DNA from: a virus
IMG/VR virus record: IMGVR_UViG_3300035698_007508
Location: 32,001 to 96,000 of that record
Direction: 5' to 3' (one strand)
DNA: 64,000 bases
The translations under genes and the position numbers were made by a program. Shown here in pieces: positions 1 to 40,251 of this stretch (position 1 is its first letter; each line of letters opens with the position of its first letter). The notes beneath the pieces are model-generated. The model saw only the letters and a program-made list of their open reading frames with translations. It ran no database searches and was not told the DNA's origin.

Positions 1-2106
1 AACGCCAAGGCCAGTGTACCGGTCCAGGTGGGCGACAAGCTGTCACCGCGCTGGGGATTGAAGGGTGTTGTGGCCAAGATCATACCTATGGATCAGATGC
101 CGCGGCACGCCGGTACCAATGCGCCGTACGATCTGCTACTCAACCCCATGACCATTCTATCACGCGTTGCAGCGGGAGCCCTTGTCGAAATGCAGCTTGG
201 TAAGCTGGCCAAGCTGCGCGGCAAGGGCTTCAAACTCCCGCAGATGCCGCCGGAAGAGGGCTGGTCCGCCTGGGCGCAACGTCAGCTACTTGAGGCAGGC
301 GTGGACGAGAAGGATCAGATATTCGATCCCGAGCTGGGTCGAGCACTGAACAAGCCCGTCGCTACCGGCAACATGTACTGGATGGCGTTCCATCACCTTT
401 CTGAGAAGAAGCTGAGTGAGCGTGGCTCGTCCGGCCTGGGCTACACACAGGATGAACTGCCGGCCCGCGGTGGGTCTGAGACGCAACAGGCCAAGAAGAT
501 GAGTCAGATGGACATCACGCAGCTTCTGGCGCACGGTGCTACCGACGTGGTCAAGGATGGGCAGATCATCCGCGGCGCCCGGAACGAAGACTACTGGAAG
601 GCGCTCAAGCTGGGCCGCCCGCTACCGACTCCCGACGTACCGTTTGTGTACAAGAAGTTCCTGAACCTGTTGAACGCCAGCGGCATCAACATCGAGCAGA
701 AGGGCGATACGTTGCGGTTGCTGCCTATGCTTGACGAGGACGTTGATCAATTGAGCCACGGTGCAATCACGACCAGCGCGAGGGTGGACGACAAGATGGA
801 GCCCATCAAGGGTGGGCTGTTTGATCCCGGGCGTACGGGCGGTGCAATGGGTAAGTTCTGGTCGCACATTGACCTGGTCGAGCCAATGCCCAACCCTGTC
901 TTCGAAGAGCCGATCCGGCGCCTGTTAGGCCTGCGCAAGCAGGACTTCACCGATATCCTGGCCGGGCGTCAGGAACTCAACGGCCAATCAGGCGGCAAGG
1001 CTATACGTGATGCACTAGCCGGTATCGATATCGACGCGCAGATCAAGGAGCACCGGGGTAACATCCGTAAGTACCGCGGCGCCAACCGGGACAACTCGAT
1101 CAAGATCCTGGGATACCTGGACGCCGCCAAGAAGCAGGCCATCCACCCATCCAAGTGGATGTTGACCAAGCTTCCGGTACTGCCGCCCGTGTTCCGCCCT
1201 GTATCCCGTCTGGGCGATATCACGATCGAAGCTGACCTGAACGAGCTGTATCGCGATGCGATCGAGGTCAACAACGCTATCGGCACATTGCGTAAGGATC
1301 TACCCGAGTCGGAACTACAGGACGAGAAGGAAGCGCTGTACCGTGCAGTGAAGGCCGTGACAGGGCTTGGCGATCCAATCACACCCGAGGGACGGTCCCG
1401 CCGCCTTAAGGGCGCGCTCAAGAACGTCATCGGTGATTCACCAAAAAGCGGATTTTTTCAAAGTAGAGTTATCTCCAAGCCTGTTGACCTGGTTGGGCGT
1501 GCAGTCGTAACGCCGGATCCGACGTTGGACATGGATAGTGTAGGATTGCCCGAAGACTCTGCCTGGGACCTGTATCACGACTTTGTCGTCCGGCGGCTGG
1601 TGCGCCAGAACGTACCGTCGCACCGCGCACTCAAGATGATTGAGGATCGTGAGGCCCCAGCCAAGGATGCATTGAACCTGGAAATGCAGTCACGGCCTAT
1701 CATCATGGACCGTGCGCCGACCTGGCATCGATTCAATCTACTGGCGTTCCGGCCACATCTGGTCGAGGGTAAGACCATGCACGTGAGCCCGTTGATCACC
1801 AAGGGCTTCAACATGGATTTTGACGGTGACGCCGTGAACTTCCATGTACCGGTGTCAGACAAGGCTGTGGAGCAGACATACAGCAAAATGCTACCGAGCA
1901 AGAACCTGTTCAGTCTGACCGACTTGAAGTCGCCCCGCCACACCCCGCAGCAGGAAATGGCGCTTGGCCTGTACCTGCTGACCCGTGCCAAGACCGCTCG
2001 GGAGTCCAAGACTTTCGCTACGGTAGCCCAGGCGCGCCGGGCGTATAGGGCCGGAGAGATTGGCGCCAACGATCCGATCAACATATTGGAGTTGAAAGAT
2101 GCCTAA
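1..2106 (+). CDS. rpoBC: Phage multi-subunit RNA polymerase, fused beta C-terminal region + beta' N-terminal region (5'-truncated)
   Basis: Frame is open from base 1. Beta motifs: GDKLSPRWGLKG (cf. GDKMAGRHGNKG), LLNPMTILSR, HHLSEKK, GINIE. Then beta' motifs: GGLFD..HIDL, KLPVLPPVFRP, DLNELYR, KPVDLVGRAV, DRAPTWHR, and the catalytic NMDFDGD at 1810-1830. Confidence 0.95.
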   Translation, partial: NAKASVPVQVGDKLSPRWGLKGVVAKIIPMDQMPRHAGTNAPYDLLLNPMTILSRVAAGALVEMQLGKLAKLRGKGFKLPQMPPEEGWSAWAQRQLLEAGVDEKDQIFDPELGRALNKPVATGNMYWMAFHHLSEKKLSERGSSGLGYTQDELPARGGSETQQAKKMSQMDITQLLAHGATDVVKDGQIIRGARNEDYWKALKLGRPLPTPDVPFVYKKFLNLLNASGINIEQKGDTLRLLPMLDEDVDQLSHGAITTSARVDDKMEPIKGGLFDPGRTGGAMGKFWSHIDLVEPMPNPVFEEPIRRLLGLRKQDFTDILAGRQELNGQSGGKAIRDALAGIDIDAQIKEHRGNIRKYRGANRDNSIKILGYLDAAKKQAIHPSKWMLTKLPVLPPVFRPVSRLGDITIEADLNELYRDAIEVNNAIGTLRKDLPESELQDEKEALYRAVKAVTGLGDPITPEGRSRRLKGALKNVIGDSPKSGFFQSRVISKPVDLVGRAVVTPDPTLDMDSVGLPEDSAWDLYHDFVVRRLVRQNVPSHRALKMIEDREAPAKDALNLEMQSRPIIMDRAPTWHRFNLLAFRPHLVEGKTMHVSPLITKGFNMDFDGDAVNFHVPVSDKAVEQTYSKMLPSKNLFSLTDLKSPRHTPQQEMALGLYLLTRAKTARESKTFATVAQARRAYRAGEIGANDPINILELKDA

Positions 2107-2923
2107 GCTGTGGGCGTGCAAAGATGGGTCCGTACTGATTGGTAGTGTCGAGGCGCAGGCCGCCGGCGGGCTCAGCTATGTACCGGATAGTTGCGCCACA
2201 GTTAACGTGTACGTACAGGCGTTTTACGACGACTACAGACACACGCATAGGTGTGACGATGCTTGCTTCGGCATTTATCTGCACACAGATAGGACAGTGC
2301 GGTTCCTAGGCTACGCGCAGTTGGATAACTGGATCGATGGCGGCTCCCGCTATAGTCCGTGGTGGTACATCGACTGGTCTACGGTTGACTACAACTGTCC
2401 GTGTGTCCAGTTCGAGGCACGCTGTGCAGAGAATGATCCTATAGACGATTGCGGCGGTGTACACGGTACCGGCAGTATTAGACCCGCAACGGAGTGTCAT
2501 GACGGTGTTGTCACCCTGTGCGTACGTAGCACAGCGGGCCCTAACTGTACCGCTTTGGGGTGCAATGTGATCATAGCCAATACGTGGTATCACATATGGG
2601 ACATCGCGGCCTTGACGCCGTGTGTTGGCGGCGCGTCGGTGGCCGCAATCGGACCTGCACGCGTGGAGCCTGCTGATCTACTGTGGGATGCTGCTCATCT
2701 GGCGCACGGGTTCGAATTGCGCGGTACAGATGGCGAAGCGTGGCTGCTGGCGGCCACCGACACTGACATAGAACGTGAAGCGCGCAGGGCGCACGCGGAT
2801 GAACGCGTGGCAATCTGTAAAGAGTGTCCACATTTCACGTCGGATTCCTGCGGTATCTGGAATGCGGACATGGCCGCGATACGCTATGGGCTAGATATAT
2901 GTCCGTTACGTAAATGGTGGTAA
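2099..2923 (+). CDS. Cys-rich hypothetical protein with C-terminal RxxICxxCP...CPxxKW motif (DUF6171-like)
   Basis: 274-aa ORF overlapping the RNAP stop by 8 nt; about 17 Cys; ends RVAICKECPHF..CG..CPLRKWW. Confidence 0.6.
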   Translation: MPKLWACKDGSVLIGSVEAQAAGGLSYVPDSCATVNVYVQAFYDDYRHTHRCDDACFGIYLHTDRTVRFLGYAQLDNWIDGGSRYSPWWYIDWSTVDYNCPCVQFEARCAENDPIDDCGGVHGTGSIRPATECHDGVVTLCVRSTAGPNCTALGCNVIIANTWYHIWDIAALTPCVGGASVAAIGPARVEPADLLWDAAHLAHGFELRGTDGEAWLLAATDTDIEREARRAHADERVAICKECPHFTSDSCGIWNADMAAIRYGLDICPLRKWW

Positions 2924-2986
2924 AATGAGTTGCATACATCGTGGCGACTGTAGTACCGTAATATGCACATCTTGGAAGGAGACAAC

Positions 2987-3607
2987 ATGACACAGAGACT
3001 TGACTACGTGAAGTTACAGGCCGTTATGGACGGTTTTCAGAAGAAGGCGTTCGTCGCTATGCCCGGCGGGGCCGATCCAGCCGCAGGCGGGATGCAGTCA
3101 CAAGCACAGGCCGCACCACCCGGTGGCGCACCTATGGACCCGGCCGCGATGGGCGGAATGCCGATGGACCCGATGGCGGGCGGCGGTATGCCGATGGACC
3201 CGGCGGCAATGGGCATGGGCCCAATGCCCGGCTCGGTTACGATGTCCATCCCTGAACTCATTGAGTTCATTGCCGTCGTGAAGGGTGACGGAGCTGCGGC
3301 TGCGGGCGAGAAGCCTAAGAAGAAGGACGACGAAGCAGCACCGGCGGCCGGCGCACCGGCCGAGGCCGATCCGATGGCGTCGCTGAACCAGAAACTTGAC
3401 CAGCTCTTGGCGGCCGCCGGCGGCGGTATGCCGATGGACCCGATGGCAGGCGGTGGCGGTATGCCACCAATGGCCGACGGCGGTGGTATGCCGATGGACC
3501 CGATGGCGGGCGGCGGTATGCCAGCTGATCCGATGGCGGGCGGCGGTATGCCAGCTGATCCGATGGCTGGCGGAGCGCCGATGGGCGGAGCGCCGCCACC
3601 TATGTAA
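2987..3607 (+). CDS. Low-complexity Gly/Met/Pro/Ala-rich protein, putative internal head protein
   Basis: SD GGAAGGAG before ATG 2987 (preferred over 2963); leader ending FQKKA; GGMPMDPMAG repeats. Confidence 0.75.
   Translation: MTQRLDYVKLQAVMDGFQKKAFVAMPGGADPAAGGMQSQAQAAPPGGAPMDPAAMGGMPMDPMAGGGMPMDPAAMGMGPMPGSVTMSIPELIEFIAVVKGDGAAAAGEKPKKKDDEAAPAAGAPAEADPMASLNQKLDQLLAAAGGGMPMDPMAGGGGMPPMADGGGMPMDPMAGGGMPADPMAGGGMPADPMAGGAPMGGAPPPM
3421..3570 (+). repeat. Five tandem ~30-nt coding repeats (GGMP[M/A]DPMAG); two more at 3151-3210
   Basis: Units at 3511-3540 and 3541-3570 differ at one base (cggcggtatgccagctgatccgatggc[g/t]gg); in frame with the CDS; no spacers. Confidence 0.9.
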
Positions 3608-3615
3608 GGACTAAC

Positions 3616-3873
3616 ATGGCAAATGGACGACCTGGACGGGTACGCGTGTTGCAGGGGGTCAAGCAGGTTCTGCTGGACACGCACGAAGCTACCGTCATCG
3701 AATTCCGGGACCAGTTTGGGGATCTGAACGCGTTGATCTCACGTCATTTCAACGATGACATGTGGATCTTCACGACCAAGGCCGATCCGGACTGGCACAC
3801 GCACTTGGTGCGGTTGGGCTATGCGCCAGCTGATATGAACGTACATCAACTCGTACAGAACTTGAAAGGCTGA
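3616..3873 (+). CDS. Hypothetical protein
   Basis: 85-aa ORF, AAGGA SD, tightly packed between neighbours. Confidence 0.7.
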   Translation: MANGRPGRVRVLQGVKQVLLDTHEATVIEFRDQFGDLNALISRHFNDDMWIFTTKADPDWHTHLVRLGYAPADMNVHQLVQNLKG

Positions 3874-3874
3874 C

Positions 3875-4279
3875 ATGAATGATACACCCGCATTGAGCTA
3901 CGTTCCGCCTTGGGTCCGCGACCTAATGGTAGGCCTTTGTACCGCCGCCGTACTCGCATCCGTAACCCTAGTCTTACGCCTGGACAAGACCGTCGCTACG
4001 TTTGTCGAGTCGCACGTGGAGACGCATAGGCAGCTGGACAGGATGATTACGGAGTTGAAGAACAATACCGTTCAGACCGCCCGCGAAGTCAACCTACTGC
4101 ACGACGATTTCCTTGAGTTCTCGGCCGGCACTACTGCTAACCGTTACACCATCTACAACGCGTTTACGGATCAGAAGAAGAGTGCCGAGGAGCTCAGGGA
4201 AGTATGGAACGCTATTCACGAGATCAAGTTGGACGTGGTCAAAATACAGAGCGATAGCGAGCGCATTACGCACGAGTGA
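3875..4279 (+). CDS. Single-pass membrane protein with cytoplasmic coiled coil (holin-like topology)
   Basis: Hydrophobic stretch LMVGLCTAAVLASVTLVL followed by helical heptad-like sequence; function not established. Confidence 0.55.
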   Translation: MNDTPALSYVPPWVRDLMVGLCTAAVLASVTLVLRLDKTVATFVESHVETHRQLDRMITELKNNTVQTAREVNLLHDDFLEFSAGTTANRYTIYNAFTDQKKSAEELREVWNAIHEIKLDVVKIQSDSERITHE

Positions 4280-4282
4280 CGT

Positions 4283-7243
4283 ATGCAGACAACCATCGGA
4301 CAGGTACTTGTAAACGACGCGCTTCCCGAGGAAATGCGGAATTACGGTCGGATATTGACCAGCAACGAAGCTGATGACTTGTTGGGCGCGGTTGCGCGTG
4401 ACCACCCCGAGGACTACCGTGATATCTCCCATGCACTGGTACAATTGGGCCGCAACGCCGCGTTCGAAGAGTCAGCAACGCTGTCCCTGTCTGACATGCA
4501 GGTCCCGTTTGACCGTAAAGAGCTGTTCGATCATGTACGCACTCAGACCCGTAAGATCATGGCGTCCAAGGATATGACTGACGATCAGAAACAGCAAGCG
4601 CTGGTTAGCGTATACGGGCAAGTCCAGAAATTCTTCGTCGATAACACGTACAAGGATATGGCGGCCAAGGACAACCCATTCGCGCTACAGGTACTGTCTA
4701 AGGCCCGCGGTAACCCGTCCCAGCTTGCAGCACTCATGACTACGCCTGGTACGTATACCGATGCATATGGCAACGTGATTCCCGTTTTCGTCCGCCATTC
4801 CTACGCCGAGGGCCTGAGCCCTCACGAGTACTGGGCGGGTACGTACGGCGCTAGGCAGGGTGTGATATGTTTGCATCCCGATACGGAGGTATTATTAGCC
4901 GATTTTACGGTCAGGAGGTTATCCGAGATCCGCGTTGGCGACACAGTATTAACAGATACTAATGAAGGCTTGGTACCTACTGCAGTACGTGCTGTGCACA
5001 ATAACGGGCTACAGCCTATGTATGAATTTACGTTCCGTAAGAATGCGAGCCAGTCTTACGTGCATGTCACGTGTACTGACCAACACAAATTCAAGGCGCG
5101 TTTGTGGAAGTCGGGCGCACGAGGCACGCCGCGAAAACTGCTTGAACCGCAGCTACGTCCTTTGTCAGACGCACGGTACCAGCGCAGGAAATGGAATAAT
5201 AATTACGTGGCAGTGCCAGCTGGAGGCGCGTGCGTTGGAGGTAAGCACGAACCGTTGGCATTACTATTGGGTTTGATGCTGGGTGACGGGTGTACAACCA
5301 AGTCTACACGTGGGCGATATAGTATCAGCTGCGCTGATCAGATTCTGATACGCGATGTACACGATTATATGGCAGAGCACGGTGTAGAACTGGTTAAAGT
5401 CGGTGGTGACAATTATAACTGGGTATTGAAACAGGCTTCAGCTGTATTCAATACCACACATACCAGCTTGACGAGCTATATGGGCGGAAAGTATGCACAC
5501 CAGAAAACATTACCGGTAGATATATATACGTGGGATACACACAGTATAGGCGCATTGGTAGGCGGATTGATAAGCGCTGACGGTAGCTTTACGCGCAGCG
5601 AAACAAGTAAGTGGATGTGTATACAGTGCACATCCAGAGATATGATCGCAGAACTGCATCGCGTACTGGAACTCAGACTAGGCGTATGGTGTAACCCTAT
5701 TTACCGTGTGGATAAAGCTGACAAACAGCACGCAGTACACGATCAATACGGTTTCACGATCACGCACCCCGATTCACTATGCAAACTTAGAGCGTGTATC
5801 ACGCTTGTAGGTATAAAGCGTGAACAGTTTGCAGCGTGGGATCTCAAGCCAGGTACGCGCTATAGTCCGCACGGTTTTCGTATACAGGGGCGTAGACTTG
5901 TCGGTATGCAGCCTGCACTAGATCTAGAAGTTGAGCACGTTTCTCATACATTTGTACTGGCGAACGGACTTATATCGTCTAATAGTACGAAATTTGCCAC
6001 CCGTGACGCTGGCGATCTAGGTAAGCAGTTCAACCAGGCGGCCATGCGTATGGTCGTGACCGCGAATGACTGCGACACGGCGAGCGGTATACCGGTCTCC
6101 ACCGACGACAAGGATACGATTGGTGGGGTACTGGCGCGTAAGGCCGGCAAGTACCCACCCGGCACCGTAGTTTCCAAAGAGGTACTTGAGGATCTGCAGG
6201 ACCTGGACAGTATCGTGGTGCGGTCTCCGCTCACCTGCGGCTTGTCCCAGGGCGTGTGCAAGCAGTGCGTCGGGCTCCGTGAGAATGGGGCCTTCCCGAA
6301 CACGGGCGATCATGTAGGTATCAACGCGGCCAGTGCGCTGGCCGAACGTATCGCCCAAGGAAGCTTAAATGTGAAACATTCTGGCGGCATGTCCAAGGGC
6401 GATACGGGCGAGAAAGTTTACGCTGGCTTCGATGTGATCAATCAGCTGTTCCAGGCACCCAAGACGTTTCCGAACCGCGCCGCCATCGCCACGATGGACG
6501 GCCGTGTTGATCGTATCGAGCCCGCCGCACAGGGCGGTCAGAACATCTATATCGACGACGAGCTCCATTACGCGTTGCCTGACGCCAAGGTAACCGTGCA
6601 GGTAGGGGACCGGGTCGAGGCTGGTGACCAGCTGTCCAGCGGTATTCTTAATCCCCGAGAGGTCGTGCAGTATAAAGGTATCGGCGAGGGCCGGCGTTAC
6701 TTCACGGAACGGGCGGCCCAGGCATTCCGTGAGAGCGGGTACAGCATCAATCGCCGCAATCTCGAAATCCTGGTTCGCGGTATGATGGATCACGCGGTGG
6801 TAGATGATCCCGACGGTTCTGGCGATTACCTACCAGGCGACATCGTGTCCTACAACGCTCTGGCCCGCGGGTACCGGCCACGCAAGGACGCGCAGCAGTT
6901 GGACACGGACAAGGCTATCGGACAGTACCTGGAACAGCCGATCCTGCACCACACGATCGGGACGCGCATCACCCGCGCTATGGCCAAGCAGTTACGTGAC
7001 TTCGGACACACACGTGTACTGGCGCACCCGTCGGTACCATCGTTTTCCCCGACGATGGTAGGCCTGCGTGCCGTACCGCAGCAGGAGTCAGACTGGATGG
7101 CACAGATGGGCTCCAGCCATTTGCAGAAGAATTTGCTCAAGAACGTACAGCGTAATGCTGAGTCTCAGACGCACGGCCTACACCCGGTACCGGCGTTGGC
7201 TAAAGGTGTGGACTTCGGAGATACAGAGGAGGTCGGGTACTGA
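4283..7243 (+). CDS. rpoC: Phage RNA polymerase beta' C-terminal subunit, intein-containing
   Basis: TTIGQVLVN start (cf. TTVGR); SKARGNPSQL; YAEGLSPHEYW..YGARQGV bridge helix; NDCD and CGLSQGVCKQC Zn ligands; trigger loop AQGSLNVKH; INRRNLEILVR. Confidence 0.93.
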   Translation: MQTTIGQVLVNDALPEEMRNYGRILTSNEADDLLGAVARDHPEDYRDISHALVQLGRNAAFEESATLSLSDMQVPFDRKELFDHVRTQTRKIMASKDMTDDQKQQALVSVYGQVQKFFVDNTYKDMAAKDNPFALQVLSKARGNPSQLAALMTTPGTYTDAYGNVIPVFVRHSYAEGLSPHEYWAGTYGARQGVICLHPDTEVLLADFTVRRLSEIRVGDTVLTDTNEGLVPTAVRAVHNNGLQPMYEFTFRKNASQSYVHVTCTDQHKFKARLWKSGARGTPRKLLEPQLRPLSDARYQRRKWNNNYVAVPAGGACVGGKHEPLALLLGLMLGDGCTTKSTRGRYSISCADQILIRDVHDYMAEHGVELVKVGGDNYNWVLKQASAVFNTTHTSLTSYMGGKYAHQKTLPVDIYTWDTHSIGALVGGLISADGSFTRSETSKWMCIQCTSRDMIAELHRVLELRLGVWCNPIYRVDKADKQHAVHDQYGFTITHPDSLCKLRACITLVGIKREQFAAWDLKPGTRYSPHGFRIQGRRLVGMQPALDLEVEHVSHTFVLANGLISSNSTKFATRDAGDLGKQFNQAAMRMVVTANDCDTASGIPVSTDDKDTIGGVLARKAGKYPPGTVVSKEVLEDLQDLDSIVVRSPLTCGLSQGVCKQCVGLRENGAFPNTGDHVGINAASALAERIAQGSLNVKHSGGMSKGDTGEKVYAGFDVINQLFQAPKTFPNRAAIATMDGRVDRIEPAAQGGQNIYIDDELHYALPDAKVTVQVGDRVEAGDQLSSGILNPREVVQYKGIGEGRRYFTERAAQAFRESGYSINRRNLEILVRGMMDHAVVDDPDGSGDYLPGDIVSYNALARGYRPRKDAQQLDTDKAIGQYLEQPILHHTIGTRITRAMAKQLRDFGHTRVLAHPSVPSFSPTMVGLRAVPQQESDWMAQMGSSHLQKNLLKNVQRNAESQTHGLHPVPALAKGVDFGDTEEVGY
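4868..5983 (+). mobile_element. Intein (372 aa) with LAGLIDADG homing endonuclease, inserted in the beta' bridge helix
   Basis: Starts CLHPDTEV; block B TDQH; LAGLIDADG motifs LLGLMLGDG and LVGGLISADG; ends HTFVLANGLISSN followed by +1 Ser. Removal restores GARQGVI-STKFAT. Visibly more AT-rich than the flanks. Confidence 0.95.
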
Positions 7244-30600: not shown

Positions 30601-33600
30601 TACCAACAATCTATGGCATGATGGATATGAGCCAGTACACTGACTTAGTGAGCGGCCAGCAAACGCCGTACGCTGGTCCCGCACAAGCCGCGGGAGCGTT
30701 ACCGTCTCCACAGGCATTCAGGGCCATGCAGCAGCCTCCCCAGCCGTTCAACAACCAATGGGGTAATATGTTGTACCAGGCGAGCGCCCCGCTTATCGCA
30801 CACGCACTGGGATACGATAACGCCGTGTTTGCGCCGCAGATGGGCGGCGGTATCAGTGGTTTTAACGCGGAGTATAGCGCTGGCTTCACAACACCGTACA
30901 GGCGGGTCGGCCAGCAGCGTGCAGCGCAGCAGACGGCTATGCAGTTCGGCAATGACTTCGCGGCGGTCGCGAATCGGTTAGGCTTCCGGCCTAAGGATAT
31001 GTCGGCGGGTGAGTTCCAGGAAGCGATCTCTAACTTCGCGGGCGGGACATGGGGACAGGTAGCTGCGGAGTTCGCGGTTCAGTCGCCGATGGTGCAGAGC
31101 CTAATGGGTGGTAATCCCATCGAAGCCTATAACCTAATGGCCCGAGCGGGAGCCGGCGCCATCTCACCCGCGGGCTCTGTACTCGATATCGTGAGCCCTA
31201 CAGGCGAACTCAATGCCGCGTTACCGTTGCAAATGGAAGAACACCGCTGGGAATTGTACAGCAAGCTGTCCGACGCTGTGTACGGCTACGACCAGGCGTA
31301 CGAGGATCCTAAGACTGGCGAGATCAAAACAAGGCGTGCCAAGGGGACGACGCCTAACATGGGGTTCACCAAGGGCTTTCGTACTGAAGACGTGATAGGC
31401 GGCTTGCACGAATACATGACCAAGCGTGATTTCGGGTACATGACCGAAGACGGGCCCAGGATGTACCGCAGTATCAAGCAAGATCCGGACGCGACCCCGG
31501 AGGAGAATAGTGCGCGGTTGGTTGACCAACAGGCCGAGATGACCTCGGAACACCTTGACATGCTAGGCGCGGCCCGAGACGCGTTCGGATCCGAGAGCGT
31601 GGCCCAGCTGACGGCCAACCTTGAAAAGTTCACGCGGGGCGGGGTTAACCGGATTGATCCAAAGCGGCTGAAAGAGACGATCGACAATATGACCGCTACG
31701 GCTATGGCGCTGGGTATCGAGGGTACCACGTTCCTGGAGACCGCACTTGAGGTACAGACTATGTTGAGCGGAAGCGTAGGTCTAGCATTAGGCGGCAGCG
31801 CCGGGGCGATGCGCACAGCGTCCGGGCGGACGATCGGTGGTTGGGGCGCCACAAGCGTAACACAGGGTTTTATGAACCAGGTTGGCGCTATGGCATCGCT
31901 GCGTGGTGACATGACACGCAACGGACTGCTGGATGCTGCGGCTGACCAACAGGCGTTATTTAATCTCGGTATGTCTTCGGTGCAGGGTAAGGATATCCAA
32001 TTGATCGAGTGGATGCGTGAGAATGGTATGGTGGACGAGAGCGCGTACGCCGCACATCGTGAAGCCATTCAGTTCGCCGACAAGTCCGCGCAAGATGCGG
32101 CGGCGGGAGCGATTTTCAGAGCCAGCCCGTTCGGATCATTGCAGGACGCCCGCGCAGCTATGCGCGATCCGGGCTTCGCGATCGCGATCGGCCAGGATAT
32201 GGAAAAGTCCGGCGCCGGTAGTTGGAACATTAAACAGGCATTGGATACCGCACAGCAGCGCGAAATGCCCGAACGTACCCGTCAAATGACGGTACAGCGC
32301 GAACGTAATCAGGTAGAGCAGTTGCTCCGACTTACCGGTATACGCATGCCGCGTGATGGCGCGGCGGTTGAAGCACGTGTTGAAGCCATGGCTGAAGCCA
32401 TACTGGACGCTGGTGGTACTGAGGCCGATGCTAATTTGCTCAAGGAACAGTTCAAGAGCCAGGGTATGTCCGGTGTACGGGCGTTGATGGCTGGTGAGGA
32501 GTATGCAGAATATCGCGGTGCGGCCGAGCAGGCTGGGCAGCACGCGTATGACATGGCAACGTTAGACTACTTGAACGAGCGCGTAGGGGATCGGTCCCGT
32601 GGTTCCCAGGCCAGCGAGATCCTGGCGCAGTTGCCGCAGCTGCGCAAGTTACTCGGCACGAACATAACAACGGACCAGAGGCGGGCCGCCGCGGACGTTA
32701 CGAGCAAGCTTAAAACCGGCGATATTGCGGGCGCGCAGGCCGCGCTGGACATAATGAAGGCTGGACCCGGACTTACTGATACGCAGTCGCGATCGGTAGC
32801 TGATGCAAACCAGCGAGGCCGTGAGCGTTATGCGCAAATGGCTAACGCCGTAGACGATACTGGAGCAGTATATAATTTACAGACAGTGCGTGACGAGATC
32901 GAAGACCGGAACCTGTACGCAGCACAGGCCATGGAAGAGTACATGGCGGTTGCTAAGTTCGATAGTGTGGATCAGGAGACCAAAGCTAAGATTGCGGCAC
33001 AGATTGACTCCAAAGATTATGAGCAGGCACGGCACACAATCAACGCTCAGCGCGAAAACTTGACCGAGGGCGAAATACAACAGCTCAACGAGTCCATCAT
33101 GGGTATTGTGACGCCAGAGGCCACTATTGAGCAGATTTCAGCTGCGACGGGGTGGACTGAGACCCGGCCAGAATTCGGTATAAGCGAGGAAGAGGTCAGG
33201 CGACTCGGTGGTCAGAATTTATTGGCCAAGACGCAGGCTGGCGCCAAGGCCGGTGTTCCTGGTAGATATGACACGTCGGAGACACAACGTAAGGCCGACC
33301 AGCTATTAGCCGGTGTGGCGAAGCAGGCGGACAAGCTGGCGCCGTTACTAAGTGATAGGCGGGACGCGACCGACAAGTATCGCCGCAACCTGGGTCAGAG
33401 GATCGTCGATTGGGGCGCGGGTCGCAACGATACTACGGTACTGGACATAATGTATATGCGCGCTCCCGATGAATTGACAGACGAGCAGCGAGCCGTTATG
33501 TCGGACGCGGATTTGGCTAAACATCAGAAATTGGTCGATGAGTACCAAGAGGCTGACGACAAGTTCGGTGATTTGGATCTCGATACGCTATCAGGTATGA

Positions 33601-37015: not shown

Positions 37016-37720
37016 ATGATGAACTACCCAGAGTATGACAGCTGGCAGGCGGACCCCACCCCCGAGAACCTCGGTGCGGTCATGCGCGCAGTTGATCCCG
37101 TGCTCGTCAGCGAGGTCCAGCGTTATGCTGGGCCCAAAGACATTTTACACGTCAAGGCTAAAGGCCTGGCGATCAAGGCCATCCGGTCTTACGACGCGAC
37201 CAAGGGCGCCAACCTCCGGTCATGGGTCACGACCCAGTTGCAGCCATTGTCCCGCTACGGCCAGCAGCTGCAGCCTGTGCGCGTGCCGGAAGCAGTACGG
37301 CGTCAGGCTGCGGAAGCGCACACCCAGTCAGAGCGCTTGCACGACGACCTGGGCCGTATGCCTACCGATACGGAGCTGGCGGACCACATGGGCCTGTCGG
37401 TCGCCAAGATCCAGAAGCTACGCAGCCGGGTGCGCGCAACCATGTCTGAATCGCAGATGACCGCGCCGAAGGGCGGCGTACCGGGCGCCATGCCGGCAAC
37501 TCAGTTCCCATCCGGAGCCGACTATGCGTTCGAGGCTGTGTACCAGGACTTGGGGCCGCGTGAGAAGGTCATTGTCGACTGGAAGACAGGCTCCCACGGT
37601 AAAGAGCAGTTGAGCAACCAAGAGATCGCACAGCGGCTGGGCGTTTCACCCGCCCTGATTACGCAGATCACCGGCCGACTGGTGGCGCAAATTCAGGAGG
37701 TAGCGAGCCATGGCGTTTAG
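37016..37720 (+). CDS. Phage RNA polymerase sigma factor (sigma70 family, group 3/FliA-like domain set)
   Basis: Region 2 KAIRSYDATKGANLRSWV; region 3 LGRMPTDTELADHMGLS; region 4 HTH LGPREKVI..LSNQEIAQRLGVSPALITQI. Confidence 0.88.
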   Translation: MMNYPEYDSWQADPTPENLGAVMRAVDPVLVSEVQRYAGPKDILHVKAKGLAIKAIRSYDATKGANLRSWVTTQLQPLSRYGQQLQPVRVPEAVRRQAAEAHTQSERLHDDLGRMPTDTELADHMGLSVAKIQKLRSRVRATMSESQMTAPKGGVPGAMPATQFPSGADYAFEAVYQDLGPREKVIVDWKTGSHGKEQLSNQEIAQRLGVSPALITQITGRLVAQIQEVASHGV

Positions 37721-38595: not shown

Positions 38596-40251
38596 ATGAC
38601 TACAACACTTAACAATGTGACCCAAGCCACGTTTGAGCAGGCCGAGGCCACTGTGATCGCACTTATGCGTGAGGCATACCCGGCCTTGGACTTACGCCGT
38701 GGCACCGTCCTACGTGAGTTGCTGGTACGTCCGGCCAGCGAATTCTACGCATTGGAGGATGACCGTTATAACCATCTGCAGTTGACACGTTCGTTGGCGG
38801 AGATTGCGGCCAACCCCGGTGAGGCCACTTCGGACGACGTAAACCACGTACTGGCCAATTTCAATATGACCATGCGGGTGGGCTCCACCGCACATGGTAC
38901 GCTGCTGGTCAGGGTCCAGTACGACCGGGGTTACTACATACCTGCTACGTTCCTGGTCGAAGTATCAGGCGGTATCCAGTACAAGGTGGAGCAGGCGTAC
39001 AACGTCAGTTCGGATACCAGTGTGGCCGCGGGCCATATTCAGCTGCAGGGGCCCACGACCGACCAGTCTTACTACTTCCTACTGCCTGTCGTGGCTGTTG
39101 CGGTAGGCGCGACTGCTAGCATTACGGCCGGTACCGCGGTGGATGCGGTCACGGCCTTTCACGGTTTCATCGCTGCTGAGGCATATACTGACTTTACGGG
39201 CGGCACCGATCCAGAGACCGTGAACCAGCTGATCACGCGTATGCCGGCCGCCATTTCCAACCGAAGCTTGGATAGCCGTAATGCGATCGAGGCTATCTTG
39301 CGCAGTCCGGAAGGCGGCGGATTCGACGACACGTTGCAGGAACTGTCTGTACAGGGTTATGGTGATCCAGGCCAGCTGCGTGATAAACACAACGCGCAAG
39401 GCGTGGCTATGGGCGGTAAGGCCGATATCTATGTCCGGACGTTCCGGCAGCCCGCGACGGTTGTACTGGAGAAGACAGGTACGCGTATCGCGTCAAATAC
39501 GTACCAGTTCACGCTCGGCCGTGACGAGGCGCCCGGGTTCTATGCTGTACGCATGGTGACTGATGCCGGAGTAGCTGCGTCGCCGTTTCTGGATTTCCAG
39601 ACGTTGCCGGCGGTGGGCTCTTACGCGCTTCTCGACACCCGTGGCAGCTCTGGCCTGTCTGCCACCATTCATGATATCGACGCGACCAACTCGATCGTAG
39701 AGACGGCCGGCACTGTCTTCCAAACCAGTACCATTACTGTGAGTCACGTCGCTACCGGCACCGAGGATATGCATGACTTCCGAGTCGAGCTCTACGTAGC
39801 GCCGGAACTGGCTGCGATTCAGGACTACGTGGATCTTGATACCGTACGCAGTGTGAAGGCCGACCATCTAGTCCGGTGCCCGTTTATCTGTCTGGTAGGT
39901 GTGCGCGCTACCGTGACAGCTGCACCAGGCGCTGCGTTAGACCTCACAGCCATGCGGACAGCGGTTGCCGACTACATCAACAGTCGTAGCTTCGTAAACG
40001 AGTTGACCGAGAGTGAGATCCTAGGCGTGCTACACACGTTCCAGATTGCCCGAGTGGATACCAGCGACGATACCCAGCGGGGTTTCGAGCTGCAAGGCGT
40101 CATCCGTGATGCCACGGGTACGGTACACACGCTGGGCGGCCACACATTGGATATCGAAGCTTATGCCGATGCTCAGAACCTCATCTTACCCGCGACTTGT
40201 GTATTCGCCGCACACGCGGAAGACATCATCATCAACGTGAGTAGCACATGA
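38596..40251 (+). CDS. Baseplate J-like protein (gp6/gpJ/gp47)
   Basis: LDLRRGTVLRELLVRP; GSTAHGTLLV; GGTDPETVNQLITR; GGKADIYV. Confidence 0.8.
   Translation: MTTTLNNVTQATFEQAEATVIALMREAYPALDLRRGTVLRELLVRPASEFYALEDDRYNHLQLTRSLAEIAANPGEATSDDVNHVLANFNMTMRVGSTAHGTLLVRVQYDRGYYIPATFLVEVSGGIQYKVEQAYNVSSDTSVAAGHIQLQGPTTDQSYYFLLPVVAVAVGATASITAGTAVDAVTAFHGFIAAEAYTDFTGGTDPETVNQLITRMPAAISNRSLDSRNAIEAILRSPEGGGFDDTLQELSVQGYGDPGQLRDKHNAQGVAMGGKADIYVRTFRQPATVVLEKTGTRIASNTYQFTLGRDEAPGFYAVRMVTDAGVAASPFLDFQTLPAVGSYALLDTRGSSGLSATIHDIDATNSIVETAGTVFQTSTITVSHVATGTEDMHDFRVELYVAPELAAIQDYVDLDTVRSVKADHLVRCPFICLVGVRATVTAAPGAALDLTAMRTAVADYINSRSFVNELTESEILGVLHTFQIARVDTSDDTQRGFELQGVIRDATGTVHTLGGHTLDIEAYADAQNLILPATCVFAAHAEDIIINVSST

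Follow-up and report, generated by a model that had tools for sequence, protein, structure and literature searches.

Genes at the locus

The stretch of DNA analysed here (the window, 64,000 nucleotides) spans positions 32,001 to 96,000 of the IMG/VR virus record IMGVR_UViG_3300035698_007508 (126,754 bases, completeness ~60%, G+C 57%), and carries genes for a bacterial-type RNA polymerase and for a sigma70-family factor, of which the beta' clamp helices and sigma region 2.2 are considered as a putative interface of reversed charge. The 3' part of a fusion gene for beta and the N-terminal half of beta' (beta/beta'-N) lies at positions 1–2106 (+ strand; Pfam Rpb2_6, Rpb1_1 and Rpb1_2; PDB beta' matches, E 2e-53). 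The full open reading frame (ORF), read in the record, starts 2286 nucleotides upstream of the window, encodes 1463 amino acids, and ends just past the catalytic motif NMDFDGD (residues 604–610), which corresponds to the NADFDGD loop of beta' and, with Pfam Rpb1_1, Rpb1_2 and Rpb1_5, identifies the subunit. The C-terminal half of beta' is encoded by a separate, intein-containing gene at 4283–7243 (+ strand; Pfam Rpb1_5, Hom_end_hint, LAGLIDADG_3 and LAGLIDADG_2).

The beta' clamp helices, a coiled-coil hairpin on which sigma domain 2 canonically docks, were located at 1231–1353 (+ strand, residues 411–451) by translation, HMMER alignment, and AlphaFold2 modelling, the model giving two helices at protein residues 412–430 and 436–454 with block-mean predicted local distance difference test (pLDDT) values of ~87–95. 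HMMER alignment to solved beta' chains, ungapped in helix 1 and with one gap in the loop, gave the substitutions R271D, R275V, R278A, R281T, R293Q and R297E, in a numbering that matches the published interface residues R275, R278, R281, L282, L285, I291, E295 and M298 (PMC10216364). The basic triad R275/R278/R281 of a bacterial-type clamp is absent, the window reading V, A and T. Net charge is −6, versus +4 in E. coli (E. coli positions 263–282 and 288–303), the E. coli strings used for this comparison having been matched to residue names in the cited papers. The acidity of the window clamp comes from positions 271 and 274, and from helix 2 (E289, E291, D294, E295 and E297).

A divergent sigma70-family factor of 234 amino acids, the only sigma found in the record, is encoded at 37016–37720 (+ strand), ~35 kb downstream of the polymerase genes in a baseplate/tail block, with a baseplate wedge gene nearby at 38596–40251. 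The Pfam search gave Sigma70_r3 at 36.3 bits (cut-off 25.3), Sigma70_r4_2 at 22.6 bits, under its cut-off of 25.7, and no region 2 profile match. Searches with phmmer matched PDB sigma F and SigA (E ~1e-6, over residues 26–226), the AlphaFold2 model matched SigA chains of holoenzyme structures in Foldseek with probability 1.0, and a PHROG sigma family was also matched. By profile or fold, the architecture is that of the sigma70 family.

The region 2.2 helix (residues 41–58, 37136–37189, + strand) was placed by family alignment and AlphaFold2, and is basic where sigma70 is acidic or neutral. Its segment DILHVKAKGLAIKAI (sigma residues 42–56, nucleotides 37139–37183) was assigned on an ungapped register as I43 = D403, H45 = I405, V46 = Q406, K47 = E407 and K49 = N409, so that I, V, K and K stand where sigma70 has the conserved acidic/polar face D403, Q406, E407 and N409; net charge over sigma 401–419 is +4, versus −1 in E. 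coli. A gapped register from pairwise HMMER alignment, with a one-residue insertion in the helix (D42 = D403, V46 = E407), was dropped. The ungapped register was adopted since the near-invariant L44, A48 and A55 fall on sigma70 L404, G408 and A415, since alignment is gap-free from K54 onward, through the latter half of the helix and the next loop, and since the AlphaFold2 helix is unbroken over residues 41–58 (mean pLDDT 87.6).

The clamp text at 1231–1353 and its six arginine substitutions, as read in the preliminary description, are borne out by translation and by the alignment to solved beta' chains, and the changes it had listed in sigma at 37139–37183 (D403I, Q406V, E407K and N409K) stand on the ungapped register. 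Sigma70 E407K, L402F and N409D, and beta' R275Q, E295K and A302D, weaken the sigma–core interaction (PMC3326312, PMC8321222), which agrees with what had been stated there for R275Q and E407K.

Related genomes and tree

When IMG/VR was scanned with one sigma sequence as query, no match was returned, and profile scans were needed. The sigma family comprises 140 proteins at E ≤0.001 on contigs of up to 203 kb; related beta' loci in IMG/VR numbered 468. A paired set of beta' and sigma was assembled from 75 IMG/VR records, Salmonella phage Arash, Vibrio phage D181, and the window, giving 78 genomes. A maximum-likelihood tree was built from the beta' N-part with the clamp-helix columns left out, and resolved a clade A of 59 genomes including the window, and a sister clade B of 19 including Arash and D181, each with 100% support in the Shimodaira–Hasegawa-like approximate likelihood ratio test (SH-aLRT). 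Beta' N-parts of clade A range down to ~33% identity with the window. A search of the phage collection returned no cultured clade A phage, the top matches being ~30% identical.

Among records at least 90% complete that hold this beta', the sigma is present in 45 of 45 (15/15, 11/11, 8/8 and 11/11), which bears on whether the factor might instead redirect the host core, as do T4 gp55, SPO1 gp28 and phiEco32 gp36, with the phage polymerase working sigma-free as in phiKZ-like phages. Such a division of labour would suit the distance of the sigma gene from the polymerase genes and its place in the baseplate block, and jumbo phages have so far been found with a polymerase and no sigma, or with sigmas and no polymerase (PMC7824862). 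Besides the constant company of sigma and polymerase, it is opposed by the Lys at the E407 position, which is the very change that weakens the sigma70–core interaction, by the sigmas of phages that rely on the host core, which keep the acidic surface, as in phiEco32 gp36 (PMC12276001) and in the polymerase-less cyanophage S-H34 and Microcystis phage MaAM05 (DL(F/I)QEG in the latter two), and by Arash virions, in which sigma, beta and beta' are packaged together as detected by mass spectrometry (PMC10585845). Redirection of the host core is considered very improbable on these grounds.

Charge pattern across clades

For the clamp, position 271 (R in E. coli) is D/E in 58/59 genomes of clade A and variable in clade B (D6, H4, N3, G2), and position 274 (N) is D/E in 51/59 and mostly hydrophobic (L11), respectively. 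Position 275 (R) is never basic in either clade and is neutral in clade A, and position 278 (R) is never basic in clade A (N, T, A, V, and a few D/E) and is K/R in 11/19 genomes of clade B; over the first 62 genomes compared, 275 was never basic and 278 was basic in one. Position 281 (R) is D/E in 47/59 genomes of clade A and mixed in clade B (K/R 7, D/E 5), and position 295 (E) is E in 53/59 and mostly Leu (L13), respectively.

For sigma, position 405 (I in E. coli) is K/R in 51/59 genomes of clade A and mixed in clade B (K9, E5, R4), position 407 (E) is K/R in 47/59 with Q/H in the others, and E/D in 17/19 of clade B, and position 409 (N) is K/R in 58/59 and variable in clade B (V5, K4, T3, R2). 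The positions of D403, Q406, E407 and N409 read T/L/A, S, R/K and K/R across clade A. Clade A also keeps A/S at clamp 302, L at sigma 410 and L/I at sigma 413, along with E295, and retains basic residues at clamp 270 (56/59) and 280 (50/59), both of which lie off the R275 face on an idealised helical wheel drawn by hand.

The two surfaces were compared over the 78 genomes by the charge of sigma 407 and the summed charge of clamp 275, 278 and 281. Where sigma 407 is basic (n = 48), the clamp sum is negative in 40, zero in 8, and never positive; where it is acidic (n = 17), the sum is never negative, zero in 9, and positive in 8; and where it is neutral (n = 13), the sum is negative in 8, zero in 3, and positive in 2. 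Like charges were found in 0 of 65 informative genomes. Since 59 related genomes, with beta' N-part identity down to ~33%, share the charge pattern, it is not a product of chance, and the reversal is a clade-wide, conserved, complementary trait rather than a quirk of one genome. The proposal in the preliminary description that both partners had changed in compensating directions is supported by this co-occurrence in clade A and by the contrast with clade B, and the joint presence of acidic clamp and basic region 2.2 in homologs, whose absence it had named as a refutation, extends across clade A. Its further suggestion, that the phage core would reject host sigmas and the phage sigma the host core, describes a putative consequence.

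A global shift in composition was tested as the source of the acidic clamp and ruled out by the overall charge of the beta' N-part, which does not differ between clades (+1.97 per 100 amino acids in clade A versus +1.87 in clade B); sigma domain 2 of clade A tends, if at all, to carry less basic charge than that of clade B. The signed charge shift (A minus B) is −2.67 in the clamp helices versus +0.43 in the other 262 beta' columns, and +3.01 in region 2.2 versus −3.40 in the rest of sigma 1–110, with the biggest shift among 77 scored sigma columns at residue 47. The charge shift is local, not compositional. Outside the clamp helices, beta' residues 260, 263, 303, 494 and 518 (window ~778–1554) carry far more negative charge in clade A than their clade B counterparts.

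Proposed interface

In the open complex of sigma32 (2.49 Å), D77, E81, I84 and M87 contact beta' R275, R278, R281, L282, L285, I291, E295 and M298 (PMC10216364), and these sigma32 residues were mapped to sigma70 D403, E407, I410 and M413 by spacing and residue identity. Because the changed positions make up the charged rim of this known interface, and because sigma and clamp shifted in charge in opposite ways, canonical docking through inverted salt bridges is proposed: the phage sigma would dock on the clamp of its own polymerase in the usual geometry with the electrostatics turned round, a reading that the sequences make moderately probable. The sigma would then serve as initiation subunit for the bacterial-type polymerase that the phage itself encodes in two genes. 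Where acidic sigma D403 and E407 meet basic clamp R275, R278 and R281 in bacteria, basic sigma 405, 407 and 409 would in clade A meet an acidic clamp face at 271, 274 and 281. The inverted contact that best fits the data would pair sigma 407 with clamp 281/278, aided by 405/409 and 271/274, and the hydrophobic centre (sigma 410 and 413, clamp 282) and E295/A302 would be kept as the charged rim inverts. A likely consequence would be less cross-binding with host sigmas and the host core, and perhaps with host NusG. The sequences, their conservation, the contrast with clade B and the strict co-occurrence of the genes are observed; from these we infer the contact of the two surfaces and a putative insulation of the pair from the host by the reversal. 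A second contact, between sigma region 4 and the beta flap, is possible, since the beta part of the fusion can be aligned to solved beta chains, including a flap-tip-like segment.

Several results weigh against this reading. At 281 and 280 the clamp of the window itself reads Thr and Gly, and R275V, R278A, R281T and D403I merely lose charge rather than swap it. The sigma register is based on conservation and a predicted helix rather than on a solved structure. The reversal traces to one evolutionary event, and since it maps to a single event, statistical covariation is weak: the raw correlation of net charge between clamp and sigma gave Spearman −0.22 (p 0.08), phylogenetic contrasts of net charge gave r ~−0.1 (p 0.4–0.7), and six independent pairs gave a sign-test p of ~0.25. 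Charge covariation scored for every clamp-by-sigma column pair, on the basis of phylogenetically independent pairs, yielded too few informative pairs for significance. By column count, large charge shifts show no significant concentration in the clamp helices (Fisher p 0.26–0.52), and the same test gave no significant enrichment in region 2.2. One genome (G096: K407, E281 and D271, the rest unchanged) can be placed as sister to clade A. Clade B phages have a sigma and a core of their own with no such swap, and a private holoenzyme therefore does not require it.

G096 was also examined as a candidate second, independent reversal, which was ruled out by the finding that a tree with this genome beside clade A is no worse (approximately unbiased (AU) test p 0.77); the tree with G096 held there was 11 log-likelihood units better than a quick free tree. 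The genome has the look of an intermediate, not of a separate origin.

The absence of significant fine covariation, and the fact that a single evolutionary event is the sole link between the two changes, would also suit an account in which they are unrelated, the clamp having become acidic for some other reason, such as shutting out host NusG/RfaH or further host or defence proteins that bind the clamp, or altering DNA contacts, and the basic residues of sigma region 2.2 having a role outside clamp docking. Clamp R270, R278 and R281 are required by host NusG for binding (PMC12364105), and many other beta' columns differ in charge by clade, for example 260, 263, 303, 494 and 518. Yet the NusG residue R270 is still basic in 56/59 clade A genomes, the altered positions coincide with the solved sigma–clamp interface, all 65 informative genomes are complementary in sign with no like-charge case, and both residue sets are conserved over 59 genomes, so that unrelated change is judged unlikely.

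Neutral co-drift, in which the interface is held together mainly by hydrophobic and polar contacts that persist (clamp L282, E295 and A302; sigma 410 and 413) and the charged rim has drifted to a new complementary arrangement with no selective role in insulation, differs from docking with inverted electrostatics solely in its consequence for cross-talk with the host. It draws on the retention of the core positions (E295 in 53/59, A/S at 302, L at 410, L/I at 413), on the single event, and on the intermediate, weakly charged clamps of clade B; the strong conservation of both charged sets in clade A argues for selection instead, although possibly for mutual fit alone. We regard drift of this kind as slightly less likely than unrelated change.

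Taking docking with inverted electrostatics one step further, clade A may hold a natural orthogonal sigma–core pair, in which inverted salt bridges between sigma domain 2 and the clamp would allow holoenzyme assembly, perhaps for virions, with no cross-talk in either direction, and of which clade B would represent the prior state. This extension is offered tentatively and is less probable than the docking itself.

Comparison with known systems

Relative to the bacterial interface of sigma domain 2 and clamp (E. coli sigma70 and sigma32; PMC10216364, PMC8321222), the window has both elements, following the same order in each protein, with the hairpin and the region 2.2 helix predicted at high confidence and with E295, A302 and the hydrophobic centre retained. 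The window lineage differs in its inverted charged rim, with clamp R271, R275, R278, R281, R293 and R297 lost, clamp 271, 274 and 281 acidic, sigma D403 and E407 replaced by neutral or basic residues, and sigma 405 and 409 basic.

Salmonella phage Arash (Gp206 beta, Gp216 beta', Gp10 sigma; PMC10585845) and Vibrio phages D69, D148 and D181 have the same beta/beta'-N fusion and the same sigma family, at ~30% identity to the window for beta' and 27–28% for sigma, and likewise carry the sigma gene in a block of structural genes. They belong to the sister clade and differ in having Glu at sigma 407, and the Arash clamp keeps R278, K280 and R281. Virion packaging is directly observed for Arash; its sole counterpart in the window is that the sigma gene lies within the baseplate block.

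A phage lineage with bacterial-type beta and beta', the mReC phages, was described in 2020 (Weinheimer and Aylward 2020, PMC7481178), and by its description is similar, being uncultured, on contigs of up to ~235 kb, and with beta/beta' distinct from cellular lineages; it differs in that sigma factors and promoters go unmentioned in that paper. The non-virion polymerases of phiKZ and AR9 (fifth subunits gp68 and gp226; PMC7618050, PMC9209446) are also phage multisubunit enzymes, and resemble the proposed system in having their own promoter-specificity subunit, independent of host sigma; their specificity subunits are not sigma70-like by sequence, whereas the window factor belongs to the sigma70 family by Pfam, HMMER and fold. 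The small, divergent sigma of phiEco32, gp36, which uses the host core, resembles the window factor in size and divergence, and places domain 2 on the clamp helices through electrostatics, as proposed here; it differs in that five acidic residues dock on the basic groove of the host clamp (PMC12276001), whereas the window factor presents basic residues.

Additional features of the polymerase and sigma genes

The intein in the gene at 4283–7243 comprises a Hint domain and a LAGLIDADG homing endonuclease at ~protein residues 196–470. Between the two beta' halves (2099–4279) lie four ORFs of 274, 214, 85 and 134 amino acids, the two largest without a Pfam match, which might encode extra subunits of the polymerase or represent mobile insertions. 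The zinc-binding domain expected at the beta' N-terminus is apparently missing (window ~800–900, P0001 residues ~270–300). In E. coli beta', ~45 residues with four Cys separate GGLFD from WSHI; in the window the spacing is ~14 residues and cysteine-free, and the short form recurs in 21/21 aligned relatives.

Searches for alpha (PF01193) and omega (PF01192) gave no match in the window's record (G000) or in four complete relatives (G001, G002, G003 and G008), although all 14 control genomes were matched, and divergent forms of either subunit could escape these profiles. An ATAAG-type promoter box was not enriched in the record (GGNATAAG, 7 copies, 1 intergenic), and k-mer enrichment over its 51 intergenic gaps gave no convincing promoter motif.

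For sigma region 2.3, VTTQLQ stands opposite ATWWIRQ in the pairwise alignment, the W433/W434 pair, whose aromatic residues melt the −10 element in sigma70, seems absent, and W70 is invariant in the family. At sigma residues 67–84 (window ~37214–37267) a QPLSRY motif, with P77, L78, R80 and Y81 invariant, seems to stand in place of the Trp pair, and this departure in regions 2.3/2.4 suggests that the −10 element may be read in another manner. Three clade A genomes (G030, G031 and G032; loci L153, L154 and L155) contain a second, weaker sigma-like stretch (profile positions 53–217, E 1e-13 to 2e-8), and such stretches sit within long open frames of 627 and 538 amino acids, so that some phages of clade A may have a sigma domain built into a longer protein.

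Implications

The contact of sigma region 2.2 with the clamp helices is, to our knowledge, the primary anchor of every bacterial holoenzyme, and its polarity, acidic on sigma and basic on the clamp, is treated as universal. The same contact is a drug target. Literature searches returned no description of a charge-reversed sigma–clamp interface; in the literature searched, the sigma of these phages is given as an annotation line at most, with its interface unmentioned, and the Arash paper lists it as a virion protein only. If the proposal is true, a reversal of polarity within an unchanged geometry would show how a phage can run bacterial-type transcription machinery of its own beside that of the host with no exchange of subunits. 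It would also give synthetic biology a rule for designing orthogonal sigma/core pairs, for which the sister clade with the cultured phages Arash, D69, D148 and D181, where the interface is unreversed, provides a natural control.

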